Positions 7,544 through 26,821 of a stretch of 33,867 bases of DNA are shown here, one piece after another. How positions within the stretch are numbered: position 1 is the first letter of the stretch; each line of letters begins with the position of its first letter. The notes beneath the pieces are model-generated. The model was not told where the DNA came from. It saw nothing but the letters and a program-made list of their open reading frames with translations, and did not search any database. Origin of the DNA: a virus (taxonomy: Duplodnaviria; Heunggongvirae; Uroviricota; Caudoviricetes). A program made the translations under genes and the position numbers. The stretch is from IMG/VR virus record IMGVR_UViG_2778261506_000006. One strand, 5' to 3'.

Positions 7544-8845
7544 ATGGAAAATATAAAGATTGATAAGTTTCTCACTATTCAAAAAGTTGATATTCCTCTT
7601 AAGAAAGTGAATATATTTATTGGGCCTCAGGCACAGGGGAAAAGTGTCATTGCAAAGCTAATAAAATATTTTAAAGATTATCCTATGGATATACTACGAG
7701 CTTCAACAGAGGGTAAAACTAAAAGAGACATATTGAAGGAGCAAAAGAATAAGTTTAGTAAAATTTTCCCTCAGCAGTATTGGGCTGATGATGAGTTTTT
7801 TATTGAGTATAGTAATAAGCACTATTGGGTGCGGATTACTAATCGAAAAAATAGCAAAGGGTCATTGAAAATAGCCCTTTCTGAGAATTTAACGAAGACG
7901 ATTGCTAAACTTCGTTTGATTGTACGAAAGGATTTAGATGAAAATATTGAGAATTCACTTGCAGAAAGCGTTACGAGAAGACGTAAACGCGGAATTGAAC
8001 ATGAATTGCGAGTATGTCTTTCTCTAGGATTGTTTTCAGAACCAGAAACAAAGCTTGAAAGTGTTTTTTATATCCCCGCAGGGCGCTCTTTTTTTGCTAA
8101 TTTGCAAAAAAATGTGTTTTCATTTTTATCCAGTAGTATAGAAATTGACTACTTTTTGACAGAGTTTGGTTCTCTGTATGAACAAACAAAAAAATTATTT
8201 AACCAAGATTACATGATTAGGATGCTTAGGGGGGCTGTGCCTCAACATGTTAATAAACTTGTGGAGGAGTTGATTTGCGGAAAATATATAACAGAAAAGG
8301 GTGAGGATTTTATTCGTCATGCTGCTAAGAAGACGAATCTTAACAACTCGAGCTCAGGGCAGCAAGAAGCGTTACCAATGGCTTTAATGTTATCCTCATG
8401 GCCGTATTTACAGTCTATGACTAGTAAGAGTTTTATTATTGAGGAGCCGGAGGCTCATCTGTTTCCTTCTGCCCAAGCAAAAGTTGTATCTTTAATAGCC
8501 TCAGCGTATAACCAAGCAGAAAGCTATTGTAGCTATACAATAACAACACATAGTCCATATATTCTAAGTGCCTTCAATAATTTGATTCAAGCAGGTAATG
8601 CATTGAAGTGTATTAAGGGCAAGAATAATACCGATATCGAACGCTTATATAAGCTTGTTCCAGAGTCTCAAATTATTGATTTTGATGATGTGACAGCTTA
8701 TATGGTTAATGCTGGGAAAGTGACGGAAATACTGGATTCCGAACTAAATATATTAGATGCGAATGAAATAGATAGGATTTCCTCTATTTTTTCAGAGACT
8801 TTTGATGCATTGATTGATATCGAATATTCGGCTACTGTGAATTAG
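7544..8845 (+). CDS. AAA15/ABC-type ATPase (OLD/AriA/PtuA-like N-terminal ATPase fold), 433 aa; candidate defence-system ATPase
   Basis: Walker A GPQAQGKS, signature-like LSSGQQEALPMALML, Walker B/D-loop FIIEEPEAHLFP, H-loop TTHSPYIL; strong SD AAGGAG 5 nt before ATG; AT-rich relative to phage core. Confidence 0.8.
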   Translation: MENIKIDKFLTIQKVDIPLKKVNIFIGPQAQGKSVIAKLIKYFKDYPMDILRASTEGKTKRDILKEQKNKFSKIFPQQYWADDEFFIEYSNKHYWVRITNRKNSKGSLKIALSENLTKTIAKLRLIVRKDLDENIENSLAESVTRRRKRGIEHELRVCLSLGLFSEPETKLESVFYIPAGRSFFANLQKNVFSFLSSSIEIDYFLTEFGSLYEQTKKLFNQDYMIRMLRGAVPQHVNKLVEELICGKYITEKGEDFIRHAAKKTNLNNSSSGQQEALPMALMLSSWPYLQSMTSKSFIIEEPEAHLFPSAQAKVVSLIASAYNQAESYCSYTITTHSPYILSAFNNLIQAGNALKCIKGKNNTDIERLYKLVPESQIIDFDDVTAYMVNAGKVTEILDSELNILDANEIDRISSIFSETFDALIDIEYSATVN

Positions 8846-8853
8846 GTGATTGA

Positions 8854-9291
8854 ATGTGTAAAAATTGCAAAGGAAAAACAAAAAATAAAATCATTGTGCT
8901 ATCTGATAAAGGAACGTCAACGCAATTGTCAGTCACAAATGATAATGAGTTGGAAGTTGAGCATAAGTTAATAGATGGTTGCGCTATTGTTGTTGGAGAG
9001 CGGTGTGATCATTATTTGAAGATTTATAACAATCAGGATGTTTCACATCTTTTTGTTGAACTTAAAGGAAGTGATGTTGAAAAAGCTGTTAAACAGATAG
9101 TGACAACTTTAAAGTCAGGTGTGATTAATGTAGGTGCTAAAGAAAAAAAACATGGTGCTATTGTTAGCACTAGGAATCCGCTAAACTCAACAGAAACCAA
9201 TAGGTTAAAGAAGAAAATTCTTTTGAGTGACGGAGTGAATTTGCATTTCTATAAAATGAAGGCGCAGCAAAAAATAACTTCTTTTACATGA
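8854..9291 (+). CDS. Small 145-aa partner protein, possible nuclease-like effector (Cys pairs, D-H...NN...H and D...ELK motifs); function unknown
   Basis: ATG 8854 eight nt after ATPase stop with SD AGGTGA; internal repeated motif I(I/L)(V/L)LSD; no homolog recognised by eye. Confidence 0.7.
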   Translation: MCKNCKGKTKNKIIVLSDKGTSTQLSVTNDNELEVEHKLIDGCAIVVGERCDHYLKIYNNQDVSHLFVELKGSDVEKAVKQIVTTLKSGVINVGAKEKKHGAIVSTRNPLNSTETNRLKKKILLSDGVNLHFYKMKAQQKITSFT

Positions 9292-19610: not shown

Positions 19611-20519
19611 ATGCCGATTATCGACCTGAACCAGCTACCCGCACCGGATGTGGTCGAGGAGCTGGACTTTGAAACCATTCTTGCCGAACGCAAGGCGACA
19701 CTGATTTCCCTTTACCCGGAAGACCAGCAGGAGGCGGTCGCCCGTACCCTGACGCTGGAATCCGAGCCTCTCGTCAAACTGCTGGAGGAAAATGCTTATC
19801 GCGAGCTTATCTGGCGTCAGCGTGTGAATGAGGCCGCACGGGCGGTGATGCTGGCCTGTGCAGCCGGTAATGACCTTGATGTGATTGGTGCCAATTACAA
19901 CACCACGCGCCTGACTATCACCCCGGCAGATGATTCGACCATCCCGCCGACACCGGCAGTGATGGAATCTGACACGGATTATCGTCTGCGTATTCAGCAG
20001 GCGTTTGAAGGCTTAAGCGTCGCCGGGTCGGTGGGAGCCTATCAGTATCATGGTCGCAGTGCCGACGGGCGTGTCGCGGATATCTCTGTCACCAGTCCGT
20101 CTCCGGCCTGCGTCACCATCTCTGTGCTGTCACGTGAAAATAACGGTGTTGCATCCGAAGACCTGCTGGCGGTGGTGCGTAACGCCCTTAATGGTGAGGA
20201 CGTCAGGCCGGTGGCCGACCGCGTGACCGTGCAGTCTGCCGCCATCGTTGAATACCAGATAAACGCCACGCTTTACCTTTACCCTGGTCCCGAAAGCGAA
20301 CCCATCCGCGCTGCCGCCGTGAAAAAACTGGAAGCGTATATCACGGCACAGCACCGGCTGGGGCGTGACATCCGTCTGTCTGCCATTTATGCCGCTTTGC
20401 ATGTGGAAGGCGTGCAGCGTGTCGAACTGGCTGCACCACTGGCCGACATCGTGCTCAACAGTACGCAGGCGTCTTTCTGTACCGAATACCGCGTCGTGAC
20501 CGGAGGCTCGGATGAGTGA
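19611..20519 (+). CDS. J: Baseplate wedge protein J (302 aa)
   Basis: Size and position as P2 gpJ. Confidence 0.9.
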   Translation: MPIIDLNQLPAPDVVEELDFETILAERKATLISLYPEDQQEAVARTLTLESEPLVKLLEENAYRELIWRQRVNEAARAVMLACAAGNDLDVIGANYNTTRLTITPADDSTIPPTPAVMESDTDYRLRIQQAFEGLSVAGSVGAYQYHGRSADGRVADISVTSPSPACVTISVLSRENNGVASEDLLAVVRNALNGEDVRPVADRVTVQSAAIVEYQINATLYLYPGPESEPIRAAAVKKLEAYITAQHRLGRDIRLSAIYAALHVEGVQRVELAAPLADIVLNSTQASFCTEYRVVTGGSDE

Positions 20520-21042
20520 TTCGCGCCTGCTGCCGACCGGCTCATCACCGCTTGAGGTCGCCGCCGCAAAAGCCTGTGCGGAAATTGAAAAAACGCCGGT
20601 CAGTATTCGTGAGCTGTGGAACCCGGACACCTGTCCGGCAAATCTGCTGCCGTGGCTGGCGTGGGCGTTTTCGGTCGACAGGTGGGATGAAAAGTGGCCG
20701 GAAGCGACAAAACGCGCCGTTATCCGCGATGCGTATTTCATCCACTGTCATAAAGGCACTATAGGTGCAATCCGGCGTGTGGTGGAGCCGCTCGGCTATC
20801 TCATCAACGTGACGGAGTGGTGGGAAAACAGCGACCCGCCCGGCACCTTCCGGCTTGATATTGGTGTACTGGAAAGTGGCATCACAGAGGCAATGTATCA
20901 GGAAATGGAACGGCTGATTGCTGATGCCAAATCTGCAAGCCGTCACCTTATTGGCCTGAACATTACCCGGGACATTCCCGGATACCTGTTCGCCGGTGGT
21001 GTGGCTTACGACGGCGATGTAATTACGGTTTACCCCGGATAA
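20512..21042 (+). CDS. I: Baseplate protein I (176 aa)
   Basis: Size and position as P2 gpI. Confidence 0.9.
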   Translation: MSDSRLLPTGSSPLEVAAAKACAEIEKTPVSIRELWNPDTCPANLLPWLAWAFSVDRWDEKWPEATKRAVIRDAYFIHCHKGTIGAIRRVVEPLGYLINVTEWWENSDPPGTFRLDIGVLESGITEAMYQEMERLIADAKSASRHLIGLNITRDIPGYLFAGGVAYDGDVITVYPG

Positions 21043-21052
21043 GTGAGGAATA

Positions 21053-23239
21053 ATGAGCACAAAATTCAAAACCGTTATCACCACTGCCGGTGCAGCAAAG
21101 CTGGCAGCGGCAACCGCGCCGGGAGGGCGGAAGGTCAACATTACCACGATGGCCGTCGGGGATGGCGGTGGTAAATTGCCTGTCCCGGATGCCGGACAGA
21201 CCGGGCTTATCCACGAAGTCTGGCGACATGCGCTGAACAAAATCAGCCAGGACAAACGAAACAGTAATTATATTATCGCAGAGCTGGTTATTCCGCCGGA
21301 GGTGGGCGGTTTCTGGATGCGTGAGCTTGGCCTGTACGATGATGCTGGAACGTTAATTGCCGTGGCGAACATGGCTGAAAGTTATAAGCCAGCTCTTGCC
21401 GAAGGCTCAGGGCGTTCGCAGACCTGCCGCATGGTCATCATCGTCAGCAGTGTGGCCTCAGTGGCGCTGACCATTGACACCACAACGGTGATGGCAACGC
21501 AGGATTACGTTGATGACAAAATTGCAGAACATGAACAGTCACGACGTCACCCGGACGCCTCGCTGACCGCCAAAGGTTTTACTCAGTTAAGCAGTGCGAC
21601 CAACAGCACGTCTGAAACACTCGCCGCAACACCAAAAGCGGTAAAAGCAGCATATGACCTTGCTAACGGGAAATACACTGCACAGGACGCCACCACCGCG
21701 CGAAAAGGCCTTGTCCAGCTCAGTAGCGCCACCAACAGCGATTCTGAAACGCTTGCGGCAACGCCAAAGGCGGTTAAGACAGCGTATGACCTTGCTAACG
21801 GGAAATACACTGCACAGGATGCCACCACAGCGCGAAAAGGTCTTGTCCAGCTCAGTAGCGCCACCAACAGTGATTCTGAAACGCTGGCTGCAACACCAAA
21901 AGCGGTGAAGTCTGCCTATGACAATGCTGAAAAACGTCTTCAGAAAGATCAGAACGGTGCGGATATTCCGGGAAAGGATACCTTCACGAAAAATATCGGT
22001 GCCTGTCGTGCTTATAGCGGCGCTTTGAGCACTGAAGCCGGAAACTGGACAACCGCTCAGTTTATTGAATGGCTGGATTCCCGTGGTGCATTTAATCATC
22101 CGTACTGGATGTGCAAAGGCTCCTGGTCATATGCAAATAACAAAATCATTACGGATACCGGATGTGGTGATATCCACCTGGCTGGTTGTGTCGTCGAGGT
22201 CATGGGAACTAAATCTGCAATCACTATCCGAGTGACCACGCCGACAACATCAAGTGGTGGCGGTACAACCAGCGCGCAATTCACTTACATAAATCATGGG
22301 GACGGCTACTCCCCCGGCTGGCGTCGTGACTGGAATCGTCAGGGCGACTCAATGACCGGAACGATTAATCAGGATGGCGGAAGCCAGAATGCCTATATGT
22401 CTACGGCCTTATGTTCAGGCACCAGAGGCGGCAAAAAATATCTCAGAAAGTTTCGTGGTGGAGAAGGAGATACTATCTGGCATGAAACAGTTCAGGGCGG
22501 GGTAATTCGCTGGGCGACAGGAAACAATGACGCTCAGGAAGAATTATCACTCAGCTCCGCTTATGGTCTCCGTTCAAGAGGTGAAATTACATCACTCAGT
22601 GCTAATGGTCTGCGCATTGCTTATGGCAATTATGGATTCTTTATCAGGAATGATGGCGGCAGCACTTATTTTATGTTGACTAAATCAGGTGACAGATTAG
22701 GTACTTATAATAATTTAAGACCACTGATTATAAATGATGCCACGGGTGCTGTATCAATGGGGCATGGCCTGAGTGTTACTGGTGATATTGTCTCAAGTAC
22801 CAAAGTACGTGCCGGTAGCGGGAAAAAGTTCACGGTCAGCAGCAGCAATACATCCACGAAGGAAGCCGCATTCAATTTGTGGGGAAACTCAAGTCGTCCT
22901 GTGGTGGCTGAATTAGGTGATGATGCAGGCTGGCATTTTTACAGTCAGAGAAATACAGATAACAGCATCACTTTTGCTGTTAACGGGCAGGTATCACCAT
23001 CTAACTATAGTAATTTTGATTCACGCTATGTCCGGGATATCCGGCTTGGTGGTGCTGCCACATACAAACCTGCGAACAATGGCATGACATGGACACATCA
23101 GGCACCGTCCGGGTGTGTATATTCCGGCATTATTGTTCAGGATACCGGCTCAAACTCTGCCGATAACATTGGTGGCGTATATTACAGACCGGTGCAGAAA
23201 TACATTAACGGGACTTGGTATAACGTGGCGCAGGTATAA
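21053..23239 (+). CDS. H: Tail fibre protein H (728 aa) with conserved N-terminus, internal 44-aa tandem repeats and a divergent AT-rich C-terminal receptor-binding region
   Basis: Position after I, followed by chaperone G; repeat QLSSATNS.SETLAATPKAVK.AYDLANGKYTAQDATTARKGLV occurs about 2.6 times. Confidence 0.9.
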   Translation: MSTKFKTVITTAGAAKLAAATAPGGRKVNITTMAVGDGGGKLPVPDAGQTGLIHEVWRHALNKISQDKRNSNYIIAELVIPPEVGGFWMRELGLYDDAGTLIAVANMAESYKPALAEGSGRSQTCRMVIIVSSVASVALTIDTTTVMATQDYVDDKIAEHEQSRRHPDASLTAKGFTQLSSATNSTSETLAATPKAVKAAYDLANGKYTAQDATTARKGLVQLSSATNSDSETLAATPKAVKTAYDLANGKYTAQDATTARKGLVQLSSATNSDSETLAATPKAVKSAYDNAEKRLQKDQNGADIPGKDTFTKNIGACRAYSGALSTEAGNWTTAQFIEWLDSRGAFNHPYWMCKGSWSYANNKIITDTGCGDIHLAGCVVEVMGTKSAITIRVTTPTTSSGGGTTSAQFTYINHGDGYSPGWRRDWNRQGDSMTGTINQDGGSQNAYMSTALCSGTRGGKKYLRKFRGGEGDTIWHETVQGGVIRWATGNNDAQEELSLSSAYGLRSRGEITSLSANGLRIAYGNYGFFIRNDGGSTYFMLTKSGDRLGTYNNLRPLIINDATGAVSMGHGLSVTGDIVSSTKVRAGSGKKFTVSSSNTSTKEAAFNLWGNSSRPVVAELGDDAGWHFYSQRNTDNSITFAVNGQVSPSNYSNFDSRYVRDIRLGGAATYKPANNGMTWTHQAPSGCVYSGIIVQDTGSNSADNIGGVYYRPVQKYINGTWYNVAQV
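21584..21922 (+). repeat. Tandem repeat inside H: 132-bp unit in about 2.6 copies (21584-21715, 21716-21847, partial 21848-21922)
   Basis: Near-identical nucleotide units read directly; in-frame. Confidence 0.85.
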
Positions 23240-23242
23240 TTT

Positions 23243-23770
23243 ATGCAGCATTTGATAAATATAACGGCAGGTAATCCAAAAACGGTTGAACAATATCAAT
23301 TGACAAAAGACTTTGATGTTGTCTGGTTTTTTTCAGAAGATGGTAAGAACTGGTACGAAGAACAAAAGTATTTTGCTGATGACACGCTAAAAATAGCGTA
23401 CGACAAAGATAATATCATCCGCTATGTGGAAAAGGATGCGACAGCTATCAGACCGGATGGATTAAGTGTTGTTGAAGTGGCGGATATTACTGCTAACCGG
23501 CGGGCGAACATTTCAGGGAACTGGATGTTTAAGGACGGCAAAGTGATTAAACGCATTTATACGGCAGAGGAATTGCAGCAGCAGGCAGAAAACCGGAAAG
23601 CCAGACTTCTTGCAGATGCTGAATTCGTGATTTTGCCGCTGGAGCGCGCGGTCAGACTGAACATGGCAACAGATGAGGAGCGTAGCCGACTGGAAGCATG
23701 GGAACGCTACAGCGTTCTGGTCAGTCGTGTGGATCCTGCAAATCCTGAATGGCCGGAAATGCCGCAATAA
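23243..23770 (+). CDS. G: Tail fibre assembly chaperone G (175 aa)
   Basis: Size and position as P2 gpG; AT-rich like the H C-terminus. Confidence 0.88.
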
Positions 23771-23827
23771 GTTGTATGAGCTCTGGTGTGAGCTAACGTA
23801 TCTATAGCACTGAAGTCTAGGGGGGTT

Positions 23828-23847
23828 AGGGCTGCAACAGCAGCCCT
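23828..23847. other. 8-bp inverted repeat agggctgc-aaca-gcagccct between convergent G and kinase genes
   Basis: Read from sequence; no U-tract on either side, so only a possible terminator. Confidence 0.3.
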
Positions 23848-23955
23848 GTGCCAAGAGCTGTCCCTATAAACTTCACTATGTGTTAATTAATAAGGTGCTG
23901 AGCATCATATTTAACTAAAGCATTAATAAAAATTAATATTAATGGGCACAAGCTA

Positions 23956-25266
23956 TTAACTAAAAATTTCGCTCAACCCAGTGACAAATATTTCTCTGAT
24001 CTTACGGCGGAAAATATCACCAAAGTCAGAGTTTGAAACATCCGTGCGCCAGATAGTTTTAGCAACACCCTGCCGATCTTCTGAAAAGACAGTAATGATG
24101 AGTTCATCAGCAATAATTTGAAAGTCAAATGTAGGTCGGAAACGAGGATACGAAGTACCAGGGGTATCAAATCCTATGTTTAACCAAGAATGACGGGGCT
24201 CAGATTTATAGTATCCAGTTTCAACTCCAGACAGATGACCTCCGATCTCTTCTATGATGTTATTACGAACTGAAATTATTTCGCTTACAGCTTCCCTGAT
24301 TTTACTCATGTAAACACTATTTATCTCAGCACCTTGAGCTTCCAACCTTTTTTTGATTTCTAAAAGAATCTCACCATCCGCCAATGTAGGTTTATTTTCG
24401 CTCATCCTCTTCAACTCCTTTCTCAACTCTTGTACCGTCTGAAATCTACTATTCAATAGCGGTGAAAAACCACGGTCAAACAATGCAAGCATTGAAAGTG
24501 CCCAACCATTAGTAGCGGCATGAATACTTTCCGATACTCCATCGCGTTGGTGAGGTCGACGCCCAGTCTCAGATTCTTCTAAAACATACGGGCTTTTTCC
24601 TGTTAATACGTAAAATAAAATCCCTACTACAAAGGTAATATCGCTTCGAGGATCTCGTTTATTAGGACTGTCTGGCGCAAGTTCATTGAGCCTTAAGAAA
24701 CGATTGCCTAGCTCTTGGCCATTATCAGTAGCATGAGCGTTCTTATCTTGAGGTTGCCATGCGAGACCGAAATCTACCAATACAGCATCAGCCGGGTTAT
24801 TACACCGGAGTATAATATTATCAGGTTTGATATCTCTGTGAATGCCATCACGAGAATGATAGTATTCGACTATATCCAACAGGCGATCTATCATATCAAC
24901 CGCATCTTGAAATGACATAGCCCCATTTTCCTCTATGTACTCACGTAATGTTGGGCCTTCAACTATTTCTGTAACTAAGTAAAGTTTGTAATTCATTTGT
25001 TCATAACGATGGCAATTACTTTCTATAAGAGATGGAATTCCCGGATGTTCATAGGTATAGAGAGCGACTGCTTCGCGATACATACGAGCTCGTCGCTCAG
25101 GGTCTTTCTGGCTTTTCAATACTTTTAAAAATGCTCTCATGTCAGAACGAACCACTGGACACGCCACGCCTTGGCCACCGCTTTTCTTGTTACCATCCGC
25201 TACCCAGCCTGCCGCCTTCGCATCCAATTTGTCATTCCACACGCCACCAACCATTTTCTCCCCCAT
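23956..25266 (-). CDS. Hanks-type Ser/Thr protein kinase with about 180-aa C-terminal domain of unknown function; cargo at the P2 Z/fun position
   Basis: Catalytic loop HRDIKPDNIIL and DFGLA motif in N-terminal half; antisense to flanking late genes; AT-rich; ATG 25266 (alternative ATG 4 codons in). Confidence 0.85.
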   Translation of the reverse strand: MGEKMVGGVWNDKLDAKAAGWVADGNKKSGGQGVACPVVRSDMRAFLKVLKSQKDPERRARMYREAVALYTYEHPGIPSLIESNCHRYEQMNYKLYLVTEIVEGPTLREYIEENGAMSFQDAVDMIDRLLDIVEYYHSRDGIHRDIKPDNIILRCNNPADAVLVDFGLAWQPQDKNAHATDNGQELGNRFLRLNELAPDSPNKRDPRSDITFVVGILFYVLTGKSPYVLEESETGRRPHQRDGVSESIHAATNGWALSMLALFDRGFSPLLNSRFQTVQELRKELKRMSENKPTLADGEILLEIKKRLEAQGAEINSVYMSKIREAVSEIISVRNNIIEEIGGHLSGVETGYYKSEPRHSWLNIGFDTPGTSYPRFRPTFDFQIIADELIITVFSEDRQGVAKTIWRTDVSNSDFGDIFRRKIREIFVTGLSEIFS

Positions 25267-25507: not shown

Positions 25508-25534
25508 GGCGGGCGAATTGCCCGCCTTTTCTTT
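25508..25534 (+). terminator. Rho-independent terminator ggcgggc-gaatt-gcccgcc followed by ttttcttt, upstream of FI
   Basis: 7-bp GC stem plus T-tract on plus strand. Confidence 0.6.
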
Positions 25535-25630: not shown

Positions 25631-26821
25631 ATGAGTGACTATCATCACGGCGTGCAGGTGCTGGAGATTAACGACGGCACCCGCGTCATTTCCACCGTAT
25701 CCACCGCCATTGTTGGCATGGTCTGCACGGCCAGCGATGCGGATGCGGAAATCTTCCCCCTCAATAAACCGGTGCTGATTACCAATGTGCAGAGCGCAAT
25801 TGCAAAGGCCGGTAAAAAAGGCACGCTGGCGGCGTCGTTACAGGCCATCGCTGACCAGTCAAAACCGGTCACCGTTGTTGTGCGCGTGGAAGACGGCACC
25901 GGCGACGACGAGGAAACGAAACTCGCGCAGACCGTTTCCAATATTATCGGCACCACCGACGAAAACGGTCAGTACACCGGACTGAAAGCCCTGATGGGGG
26001 CTGAGTCGGTTACCGGCGTTAAACCGCGCATTCTCGGCGTACCGGGACTGGACACCAAAGAGGTCGCCGTCGCACTGGCATCGGTATGCCAGGAACTGAA
26101 TGCCTTCGGGTATATCAGCGCATGGGGTTGTAAAACCATTTCCGAGGTGAAAGCCTACCGCCAGAATTTCAGCCAGCGTGAGCTGATGGTTATCTGGCCG
26201 GATTTCCTCGCATGGGATACGGTTACCAGTACCACCGCCACCGCGTATGCCACCGCCCGTGCGCTGGGTCTGCGCGCTAAAATCGACCAGGAGCAGGGCT
26301 GGCATAAAACGCTGTCCAACGTCGGGGTGAACGGTGTTACCGGCATCAGTGCATCCGTCTTCTGGGATTTGCAGAAGCCAGGCACTGATGCTGACCTGCT
26401 GAACGAGGCAGGCGTCACAACGCTGGTTCGCCGCGACGGTTTCCGTTTCTGGGGTAACCGTACCTGCTCTGATGACCCGCTGTTCCTCTTTGAAAGCTAC
26501 ACACGCACCGCGCAGGTACTGGCCGACACGATGGCTGAGGCGCACATGTGGGCTATTGATAAGCCCATCACCGCAACGCTGATTCGCGACATCATTGACG
26601 GCATCAATGCCAAATTCCGTGAACTGAAAAACAACGGTTATATCGTGGATGGCACATGCTGGTTCAGCGAAGAATCCAACGATGCGGAAACCCTCAAGGC
26701 CGGAAAACTGTATATCGACTACGACTATACCCCGGTGCCTCCTCTCGAAAACCTGACCCTGCGCCAGCGTATTACTTCCAGATACTTGGCAAGTCTGGTC
26801 ACTTCGGTTAACAGCAATTAA
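25631..26821 (+). CDS. FI: Tail sheath protein FI (396 aa)
   Basis: Size and position identical to P2 gpFI. Confidence 0.93.
   Translation: MSDYHHGVQVLEINDGTRVISTVSTAIVGMVCTASDADAEIFPLNKPVLITNVQSAIAKAGKKGTLAASLQAIADQSKPVTVVVRVEDGTGDDEETKLAQTVSNIIGTTDENGQYTGLKALMGAESVTGVKPRILGVPGLDTKEVAVALASVCQELNAFGYISAWGCKTISEVKAYRQNFSQRELMVIWPDFLAWDTVTSTTATAYATARALGLRAKIDQEQGWHKTLSNVGVNGVTGISASVFWDLQKPGTDADLLNEAGVTTLVRRDGFRFWGNRTCSDDPLFLFESYTRTAQVLADTMAEAHMWAIDKPITATLIRDIIDGINAKFRELKNNGYIVDGTCWFSEESNDAETLKAGKLYIDYDYTPVPPLENLTLRQRITSRYLASLVTSVNSN

Follow-up and report, generated by a model that had tools for sequence, protein, structure and literature searches.

The phages P2, Mu and P1 are textbook cases of tail-fibre genes built as mosaics, with PF03406 repeats, cassettes that pair tip and chaperone, and an AT-rich distal fibre. 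The P2 fibre is a homotrimer that is found in virions and required for adsorption (P2 literature, including the cryoEM preprint bioRxiv 10.64898/2026.09.14.750843). According to the preprint, a collar/adaptor domain docks the fibre on the baseplate protein gpI, and the 54-nm fibre contains two 'repeat domains'. In its contraction model, the length of the fibre acts mechanically: how it compares with the distance from sheath to membrane matters for triggering. In the gpH protein of L-413C, four regions have been described that form a mosaic of P2 and non-P2 sequence (Garcia et al., 2008, as summarised in PMC7460101), and exchange of the HR2 region of P88 altered host range (PMC5285337). For the Mu chaperone Tfa, a model has been published in which the N-terminal domain binds the fibre and the C-terminal domain trimerises (PMC9608196). 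Tfa proteins also bind to host surfaces, as PMC10579305 reports from North & Davidson (2021).

Here, we analysed genes H and G in a 33,867-nt stretch of viral DNA (IMG/VR record IMGVR_UViG_2778261506_000006), hereafter called the window. Very probably, they encode the side tail fibre and assembly chaperone of a P2-like (Peduovirus) prophage, composed of modular, recombining blocks and containing a variable 132-bp repeat array. H is an ordinary P2-family tail-fibre gene made of swappable modules, and its biology is already known for the family. As a discovery the locus matters little; it provides a clean worked example for annotation and engineering.

Gene context and domain architecture of the fibre

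H (21053..23239) encodes a tail-fibre protein of 728 aa, recognised by its ORF, its Pfam matches (PF12571, three PF03406 units and PF21446) and PHROG tail fibre families. Like all features below, unless stated otherwise, it lies on the plus strand. A sequence-only reading of this region had started the feature at 21584, which marks the repeat region; the gene itself begins at 21053. The ORF map, the P2 annotation and the Pfam labels of the neighbouring genes place H between I (20512-21042) and G, upstream of a cargo slot and FI. The resulting late order, V-W-J-I-H-G-[cargo]-FI, is that of P2 (gpH/gpG, NC_001895). Four antisense ORFs (21587-22099, 21583-21867, 22096-22284 and 23513-23854, all on the minus strand) were rejected as spurious; they have no Pfam match and lie opposite a conserved coding frame.

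H starts with a tail-collar/adaptor domain (aa 1-151, 21053..21505; PF12571 matched over all 150 profile positions, E = 2.3e-58) and is 95% identical to P2 H from aa 1 to ~246-251. Past the repeat array, the alignment with P2 H is lost until the last ~140 residues, and the ~330 residues between the array and a conserved block further downstream are unrelated to P2. The first domain after the array (aa 290-443, 21920..22381) is a relative of S', the G(-) fibre of Mu, with which it shares 108/154 identical residues (70%) (phmmer to PDB 8JU3 residues 177-332, 238.6 bits). Its DNA is 96-100% identical to that of the Yersinia phages P37 and vB_YpM_46 and has no identity to P2. It is followed by a T4 gp34-type knob/trimerisation domain (aa ~496-585, 22538..22807; PF21446, E = 5e-24; PDB 4UXE/5NXF), which is related to Mu S (PDB 5YVQ) and forms the GC minimum of H (0.43). 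A small divergent patch within the knob (22628-22760) is 68-86% identical to P37/vB_YpM_46 and 100% identical to E. coli 05-3629. H holds a domain 69% identical to Mu S, and its aa 500-727 align with S residues 260-503.

The conserved block (aa 586-650, 22808..23002) is common to P2, P37, vB_YpM_46 and window-type fibres in the alignment. It leads into the distal tip (aa 651-728, 23003..23239), which contains a hypervariable patch at aa ~667-712 (nt ~23051-23188) as well as 16 invariant last residues shared with P2. The tip belongs to the P2 H/Mu S family and ends in the conserved ...QKYINGTWYNVAQV (alignment; phmmer to 5YVQ_A residues 260-503). PDB sequence matches group its fold with those of the Mu S tip (5YVQ) and a short tail fibre (9CUY), and the same tip family is present in Mu-like, P1-like and Actinobacillus phages.

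Solved homologues span H aa 244-727 and the whole of G. By homology, the fibre would be a trimer of modules, running from a gpI-docking adaptor through three PF03406 units, a Mu S'-like domain and a gp34-type knob to a Mu S/P2 H-type tip. The ~45-residue hypervariable patch of the tip would then contact the receptor, which in P2 is the LPS core.

The shaft repeat array and its unit number

Three in-frame 132-bp/44-aa PF03406 units occupy 21560..21955, with starts at 21560, 21692 and 21824 (H aa 170, 214 and 258). The 132-bp tandem repeat proposed from the sequence is thus borne out by three approaches. TRF reports 2.5 copies of a 132-bp period at 21599-21922 (87% matches, score 494) and no other long-period array anywhere in the window. 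A repeat search finds three copies in register at 21572/21704/21836, and the Pfam family PF03406, 'Phage tail fibre repeat', matches three tandem units at a regular 44-aa spacing (E = 2.5e-58, covering positions 1-41 of the 42-position profile).

The sequence-only reading had counted about 2.6 near-identical repeats of 44 aa. The unit length holds, with three units in frame, but near-identity was an overstatement: in reading-frame register, DNA identity between adjacent units is 75% (R1/R2) and 73.5% (R2/R3), and 36/44 and 33/44 residues are shared, respectively. Differences in the unit cores are mostly synonymous: units 1 and 2 differ at 12 codons synonymously and at 4 non-synonymously. The middle unit is a hybrid of a unit 3-like 5' half and a unit 1-like 3' half (half-unit identities of 92% and 89%).

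P2 H, with 669 aa, has two units, and Mu S has a single PF03406 unit in the region aligned with H. The idea that the repeats lengthen H relative to P2 (728 vs 669 aa) is correct as far as one extra 44-aa unit goes. It does not explain the whole 59-aa difference, because the portions past the array also differ, with 427 aa and a different domain set here vs 412 aa in P2.

Unit number varied from 1 to 6 among 94 related full-length fibres, with four units being the commonest count (41/94); database H proteins have 2 to 5. Copy numbers were taken from full H-G spans, one E. coli locus and IMG/VR loci. Counting from megablast spans (751-bp probe, E. coli complete genomes) was dropped, as hits were split by the repeats. 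In four backgrounds, the flanks were at least 99.1% identical and the unit numbers unequal, and the extra units were internal duplicates identical at 130-131 of 132 positions. An E. coli complete genome encodes an H allele of 772 aa, which has 721/728 residues identical to the window's protein plus one additional unit. The suspected variation in repeat number is therefore real and recurrent, and it includes pairs of genes that are otherwise at least 99% identical. Internal units may be added or removed by unequal crossing-over or slippage in the 132-bp array.

The window's own count of three rests on a draft assembly, and for this prophage a collapse artefact is possible. IMG/VR contig UViG_2711768062_000002 has four units; after deletion of one of them, 7,393 bp of it agree with the window at every position but one. 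The extra unit has a perfect 72-nt stretch in common with unit 1 and long stretches in common with unit 3. The exact 728-aa H is recorded only in the draft WGS assembly GCA_002511785.1, and many database H proteins are labelled 'partial', which fits assemblies breaking in the array. The true prophage could accordingly have four units, one of which was collapsed by a short-read assembler. We regard this as unlikely. Fibres of the window's type have three units in the complete genomes CP027373, CM149595 and LR134209 (2,718-bp spans), and three units are also found in phages P37 and fiAA91-ss. Moreover, the reading frame is intact and the remaining units can be told apart, differing at 33 or more of their 132 nt. 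The locus documents that repeat number is unstable over very short evolutionary times and unreliable in draft assemblies.

More units would be expected to give a longer fibre, each 44-residue unit extending the shaft, as follows from homologues and the P2 fibre model (bioRxiv 10.64898/2026.09.14.750843). Every unit number between 1 and 6 is represented, several different bodies and tips are involved, no association with tip type is visible, and unit changes are recent and recurrent. This pattern suits a neutral by-product of inter-repeat recombination, in which 1 to 6 units are tolerated and neither adsorption nor host range is affected, a reading to which we give slightly less than an even chance. 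Against it stand the uneven distribution with its excess of four-unit fibres, the signature of purifying selection on the unit cores and the mechanical role of fibre length in the P2 contraction model, all of which bear on it indirectly. The opposite proposal is that the array is a recombination-driven contingency locus, in which frequent gain and loss of shaft units would tune fibre reach stepwise, adding to the tip a separate, second control of host range. We consider this unlikely. If true, the steps would change the efficiency of adsorption or triggering on hosts that differ in the depth of LPS, O-antigen or capsule, and if unit number affects adsorption, it would offer a simple engineerable length parameter for P2-based delivery particles.

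Block exchange and pairing of the tip with chaperone G

Pairwise BLAST and 90-nt sliding identity across six phages/prophages resolved a mosaic of three blocks. The first (21053 to ~21720) is P2-like, the second (~21750-22990) matches P37 and vB_YpM_46, and the third (~23003-23770), comprising the tip and G, matches P22H1 and fiAA91-ss. Abrupt jumps in identity, from <50% to ~100%, mark block exchange. The breakpoint of the tip cassette lies directly downstream of the conserved aa 586-650 block, inside the broadly conserved motif NFDSRYVRD; at ~22990-23030, identity to P37/vB_YpM_46 drops and identity to P22H1/fiAA91-ss climbs.

P37 and vB_YpM_46, two peduoviruses plated on Y. pestis, match the body of the window's fibre between the last repeat and aa ~650 (96-100% DNA identity). 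They differ in the tip patch, where DNA identity is only 36-49%, and in the N-terminal domain of G, both of which are of a P2-like type, here called type B. In the N-terminal domain of its fibre, P37 reaches a DNA identity of just 68-86%, and vB_YpM_46 has four units. P22H1 and fiAA91-ss have the same tip patch (type A) and the same G as the window, with 94-100% DNA identity over 23003-23813, despite unrelated or only partly related fibre bodies: H of P22H1 has 919 aa, one unit and an unrelated body, and H of fiAA91-ss, with 692 aa, is divergent between aa ~330 and ~640. Overall, the type-A tip and G were found behind at least six different fibre bodies of 665 to 919 aa. The P2 patch is of the other type, with 46% identity over the last 78 aa. 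In the alignment, the tip patch corresponds to HR2 of P88 (PMC5285337), whose aa 716-746 align with H aa 672-710, immediately ahead of the 16-18 conserved residues at the C terminus, although P88 belongs to the genus Xuanwuvirus, has a type-B patch and contains an invertible fibre segment.

These comparisons directly show that the predicted receptor-binding module has been exchanged horizontally together with its matching chaperone, as the sequence-only reading had proposed. Whole blocks would be exchanged by homologous recombination at conserved linker sequences. The locus defines the limits of the cassette at base level, from ~23003 to ~23600 or 23813, flanked on either side by conserved arms. 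The exact combination of modules is absent from INPHARED phages, the best match reaching 92% across 98% of H; at least 80% of H-G is covered in 115 complete E. coli genomes, at identities of up to 97.7%.

G lies directly downstream of the fibre gene, its start codon at 23243 being 3 bases past the end of the H stop codon (23239). It is similar over its full length to characterised Tfa proteins, as it matches PF02413 (E = 4.5e-34), aligns end to end with Mu U (TfaMu; PDB 5YVQ_B, residues 1-175, E = 1e-81) and is 74% identical to P2 G. It has a variable, AT-rich N-terminal domain with a predicted fibre-binding role (aa 1-110, 23243..23572, GC 0.40) and a conserved helical C-terminal domain with a predicted role in trimerisation (aa 111-175, 23573..23770, GC 0.54). 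Identity matrices of eight loci confirmed this division. The N-terminal domain is 94-97% identical within type A and 68-71% identical to type B (68% to P2), and the C-terminal domain is 78-95% identical over all eight phages and 78-89% between types. DNA identity to P37/vB_YpM_46 is back at 93-97% from ~23618, and the C-terminal domain is by these identities the predicted downstream homology arm relative to type-B phages.

Tip type agreed with the type of the G N-terminal domain in 135/140 IMG/VR loci (AA 74, BB 61, mixed 5), the 140 being the best 80 per query of ~540 loci and phylogenetically non-independent. In the five mixed loci, a B-like G accompanies an A-like tip (74% identity), and the pairing of tip and G therefore has exceptions. 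Within G, both AT-richness and co-variation with the tip are confined to the N-terminal ~110 residues, which suggests that this domain alone needs to accompany it. The pattern fits the published Mu Tfa model, and H and Mu share the tip fold family and the two-domain chaperone logic. By homology, the variable N-terminal domain of G would bind the tip, and the conserved C-terminal helices would gather three chains and thereby start folding.

The late-gene backbone has a GC content of 0.568 ± 0.029 (56 non-overlapping 300-bp windows). From ~21800 GC declines stepwise, reaching 0.38-0.47 in the windows of 22403-23602 (z = -3.3 to -6.4). The C-terminal third of H and G had been called AT-rich; this applies to 22403-23602, but GC is back at 0.54 in the final third of G, and the AT-rich tract extends past G into the downstream cargo gene. 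Composition is thus far from uniform, and colinearity with P2 H does not extend over the full length. P2 H and G show an equal dip at the corresponding place, in distal H and proximal G. AT-richness alone is therefore no evidence of a swap relative to P2, a correction to the sequence-only reading; it is a property of the shared module pool and not of this prophage.

A dip at the same place in P2 and the prophage despite differing sequences, together with breakpoints that do not coincide with the GC shift, could also reflect a constraint on protein or expression and not foreign origin. This is very unlikely, since GC falls most at synonymous, third codon positions (GC3 of 0.34 in H aa 451-560 and 0.37 in G aa 1-60 vs 0.60-0.67 in I, J and FI), the tip family occurs in the other phage groups listed above, and the switches in identity mark block exchange.

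Programmed variability, by an invertible segment in the style of Mu, P1 and P88 or by a diversity-generating retroelement, is extremely improbable. One fibre does combine domains akin to S and to S' (8JU3), the two alternative fibres of Mu, and the related P88 has an inverted fibre/Tfa cassette and an invertase beside G. However, the variable parts of S and S' are alternatives through G-segment inversion in Mu, whereas the S'-like and S-like domains of H are fused in series in one reading frame. Between G and FI there is neither an invertase nor an inverted fibre/Tfa fragment, and the sole ORF encodes a protein kinase. This gene, which adjoins G (23956-25266, minus strand), encodes a predicted PD-T4-6 anti-phage kinase, with a full-length PADLOC match (PDLC04046, E = 3.7e-174, positions 3-424 of 427) and a Ser/Thr kinase domain (PF00069, E = 3.3e-22).

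Mosaic structure and composition of the fibre genes

The window holds a complete P2-like (Peduovirus) prophage, with the integrase and early genes on its left side and the late genes in P2 order, as judged against the P2 annotation (Q, P, O, N, M, L, lysis genes, R, S, V, W, J, I, H, G, cargo slot, FI, FII, E, T, U, D). The tail fibre gene H (21053–23239, plus strand) encodes 728 aa, and the gene of its assembly chaperone, G (23243–23770, plus strand; 175 aa), starts 3 bases past the H stop codon. Residues 1–251 of H are 95% identical to P2 H (669 aa, two repeat units). Beyond residue 251, similarity to P2 H becomes detectable again only in the final ~140 residues. G and P2 G align colinearly, with 74% identity.

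Pairwise BLAST and 90-nt sliding identity against P2, P37, vB_YpM_46, P22H1, fiAA91-ss and one E. coli prophage revealed a mosaic of three sharply bordered blocks. Block 1 (21053 to about 21720) shows 94–100% identity to P2, vB_YpM_46 and fiAA91-ss. Block 2 (about 21750–22990) is unrelated to P2 and 96–100% identical to P37 and vB_YpM_46, peduoviruses plated on Yersinia pestis. Block 3 (about 23003–23813), which extends over the final ~78 H residues, the whole of G and a further 43 bp, is 94–100% identical to P22H1 and fiAA91-ss; its tip patch shows only 36–49% identity to P37 and vB_YpM_46. The sequence-only reading had proposed a horizontally swapped receptor-binding module. Its observation is confirmed and its interpretation is essentially right, except that two exchanged blocks were found instead of one.

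The switch between blocks 2 and 3 falls in the broadly conserved motif NFDSRYVRD, at the end of a stretch (aa 586–650) common to P2, P37 and vB_YpM_46. Inside the G C-domain, from about 23618 onwards, identity to phages with the P2-type tip rises again. What was exchanged thus resembles a cassette flanked by conserved arms. Within block 2, a patch of ~130 bp in the knob (22628–22760) is 68–86% identical to P37 and vB_YpM_46 and matches E. coli 05-3629 at 100%. Its protein sequence (FMLTKSGDRLGTYNNLRPLIINDATGAVSMG) is nearer to Mu S, and the patch looks like a small gene-conversion tract.

The late-gene backbone has a GC content of 0.568 ± 0.029 (56 non-overlapping 300-bp windows), against which 22403–23602 drops to 0.38–0.47 (z −3.3 to −6.4). 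The drop is located in third codon positions (GC3 0.34–0.37 versus 0.60–0.67 in I, J and FI). Along H, GC is 0.55 in the adaptor domain, 0.52 in the repeats, 0.51 in the Mu S'-like domain, 0.44 in the knob, 0.48 in the conserved block and 0.47 in the tip. An AT-rich C-terminal part of H, as first read, is thus borne out, but only about two-thirds of G shares it: the G N-domain has a GC of 0.40 and the C-domain 0.54, and low GC resumes in the cargo gene after G. Neither uniform composition nor full colinearity with P2 H and G was found. P2 has the same profile (H nt 1050–1950, 0.40–0.47; G N-domain, 0.35–0.40; G C-domain, about 0.52), so that AT-richness belongs to a shared pool of distal-fibre modules and does not signal an exchange peculiar to this prophage. 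The AT-rich signal does not mark the recombination breakpoints.

The fibre tip and its chaperone

The P2 fibre is a ~54-nm gpH trimer, composed of a gpI-held N-terminal adaptor, two 'repeat domains', extension and anchor domains, a gp34-like knob and a Mu-like tip; its binding to the LPS core has been proposed to trigger contraction (cryo-EM preprint, bioRxiv 10.64898/2026.09.14.750843). H of the window aligns with several known fibres: aa 290–443 with the Mu G(−) fibre S' (8JU3, residues 177–332; 108 of 154 identical), aa 500–727 with the Mu G(+) fibre S (5YVQ, residues 260–503), aa 506–580 with the T4 gp34 trimerisation domain and aa 588–725 with a short tail fibre (9CUY). G is matched end to end by the 5YVQ chaperone, Mu U (E 1e-81). 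In Mu, the variable parts of S and S' are alternatives selected by DNA inversion, whereas the window carries related domains in series, with no invertase between G and FI. Phage P88 (25416–27564 in its locus), in contrast, has an inverted second fibre C-terminus and Tfa gene, as well as a DNA invertase, directly 3' of G, a Mu-like switching segment in a P2-related phage.

By its last 78 residues, H can be sorted into two types across eight loci. Type A occurs in the window, P22H1, fiAA91-ss and two E. coli prophages, and type B in P2, P37 and vB_YpM_46. The G N-domain (aa 1–110) gives the same two groups, with 94–97% identity within type A and 68–71% between types, while the G C-domain is 78–95% identical across all eight loci. 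The fibre body groups otherwise, the window being 92–93% identical to P37 and vB_YpM_46 and only 21% to P22H1. The suggestion of a matching chaperone thus holds for the G N-domain, and not for the rest of G.

IMG/VR was scanned with the G of the window and with P2 G, yielding 140 loci with both genes readable. In these non-independent samples, G type A occurs with tip type A in 74/74 and G type B with tip type B in 61/66, so that the pairing is strong and not strictly one-to-one. The type-A tip and G sit behind at least six different fibre architectures of 665–919 aa. In the five exceptions (L150, L153, L155, L157 and L166), the tip patch shares 74% identity with type A (GSQQYYGVNNWQTWNFQCPSGHVLSG...) and G is type-B-like (91–94%), with distinct first ~30 residues in four of the five and a Mu U-like N-terminus in L153. 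These exceptions may hint at the G residues that read the tip. TfaMu also remains attached to the tip of the fibre, where it may contact LPS (PMC10579305).

A hypervariable stretch of H (aa ~667–712) directly precedes the invariant last 16 residues. Residues 672–710 align with HR2 of P88 (aa 716–746), and P88's host range changed when HR2 was exchanged for the pro147 version (PMC5285337). By analogy, this stretch is a putative specificity determinant. The same tip family also occurs in Mu-like, P1-like and Actinobacillus phages.

Repeat units in the fibre shaft

Tandem Repeats Finder reported a single long-period array, at 21599–21922 (period 132, 2.5 copies, 87% matches, score 494), and a gap-free search placed three in-register copies at 21572, 21704 and 21836. 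The in-frame units start at 21560, 21692 and 21824 on the plus strand (H residues 170, 214 and 258), and Pfam recognises three PF03406 'phage tail fibre repeat' units (E 2.5e-58). The 44-aa repeats noted from the sequence are therefore real, but not near-identical: neighbouring units share 75% and 73.5% of their DNA and 36/44 and 33/44 residues. Core codons of units 1 and 2 differ by 12 synonymous versus 4 amino-acid changes, so that the units are old and maintained by selection at the protein level. Unit 2 is a hybrid that resembles unit 3 in its 5' half (92% identity) and unit 1 in its 3' half (89%), as would be expected of unequal crossing-over.

Four units are present in the closest relative, IMG/VR contig UViG_2711768062_000002 (L009). 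Apart from a single mismatch (window position 26029), this contig equals the window over 7,393 bp once its second unit is taken out. That unit has not arisen by fresh duplication, as it shares 112/132 bases with unit 1 and 118/132 with unit 3. Over its final 72 bases, however, it matches unit 1 perfectly; a crossover within them would remove exactly one unit and give the sequence of the window. Alternatively, the three units could reflect collapse of one unit during assembly, given that a draft assembly, GCA_002511785.1, is the only record of the exact 728-aa protein. We consider this unlikely, because three-unit alleles are present in complete genomes and isolated phages.

P22H1 has one unit, P2 two, the window, P37 and fiAA91-ss three, and vB_YpM_46 four. 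A comparison of repeat copies across related prophages, as the sequence-only reading had envisaged, gave 1 to 6 units in 19, 15, 10, 41, 8 and 1 of 94 full-length IMG/VR fibres, respectively. Two to five units are clearly documented among 120 database relatives of the N-terminal part of H, behind three different N-terminal domains; single-unit counts in that set are apparently motif-count misses. The window-type body is known with 3, 4 and 6 units (728, 772 and 860 aa). Of the best 25 H–G matches in complete E. coli genomes, 6 span 2,718 bp (three units) and 19 about 2,850 bp (four units); H of one four-unit locus has 772 aa, being 721/728 identical to that of the window and longer by exactly one unit. 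In four independent backgrounds, unit numbers differ although the flanks are at least 99.1% identical. Gained units are internal and 130–131/132 identical to their neighbours, while the first and last units remain distinct.

The H–G allele is common in E. coli prophages, with at least 80% of H–G covered in 115 complete genomes. All these findings fit the well-described biology of the P2, Mu and P1 tail-fibre genes and are already known in that sense; the possible functional consequence of an unstable unit number is the one point with some potential.

Most close relatives among the 120 database proteins are annotated 'partial', ending within or just past the array, and some have frameshifted tails (e.g. 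P0001, P0022, P0062). This suggests that the array often breaks or corrupts short-read assemblies.

Cargo genes around the fibre cassette

The cargo slot between G and FI, the Z/fun position in P2 and a known P2 defence hotspot (PMC9122126), is filled by a Ser/Thr kinase gene (23956–25266, minus strand; 436 aa, GC 0.42) with a full-length PADLOC match to PD-T4-6 (E 3.7e-174). The phage genome collection held no close relative of this kinase (best 26–30% identity). Elsewhere the slot carries other genes: DarT and a macro-domain protein (DarTG) in E. coli S1-SRB-02-B (L008, 5463–7250), a hypothetical protein in E. coli 05-3629 (L007, 6083–7066) and others in further relatives. H–G of these two prophages is 96.5–97.7% identical to the window, yet their cargo differs, which illustrates turnover of the hotspot beside an unchanged fibre cassette.

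A strong terminator-like hairpin (25508–25526, plus strand; 8 pairs, 7 of them G-C, then a T run) sits past this cargo, closely upstream of FI. The P2 V-operon terminator is annotated directly after G, so that read-through from H–G would cross the kinase gene antisense. Antisense ORFs within H and G gave no family matches.

A second AT-rich cargo (7544–9291, plus strand; GC about 0.36) lies just ahead of the portal gene. It encodes an AAA_15/AAA_21 ATPase (7544–8845, plus strand; 433 aa) and a 145-aa ORF without a Pfam match (8854–9291, plus strand). As the pair matches the candidate defence pair PDC-M29A/B (2e-31 and 1.6e-4) and AriA (3e-25) only weakly, it may represent a two-gene defence system that is divergent or still undescribed.
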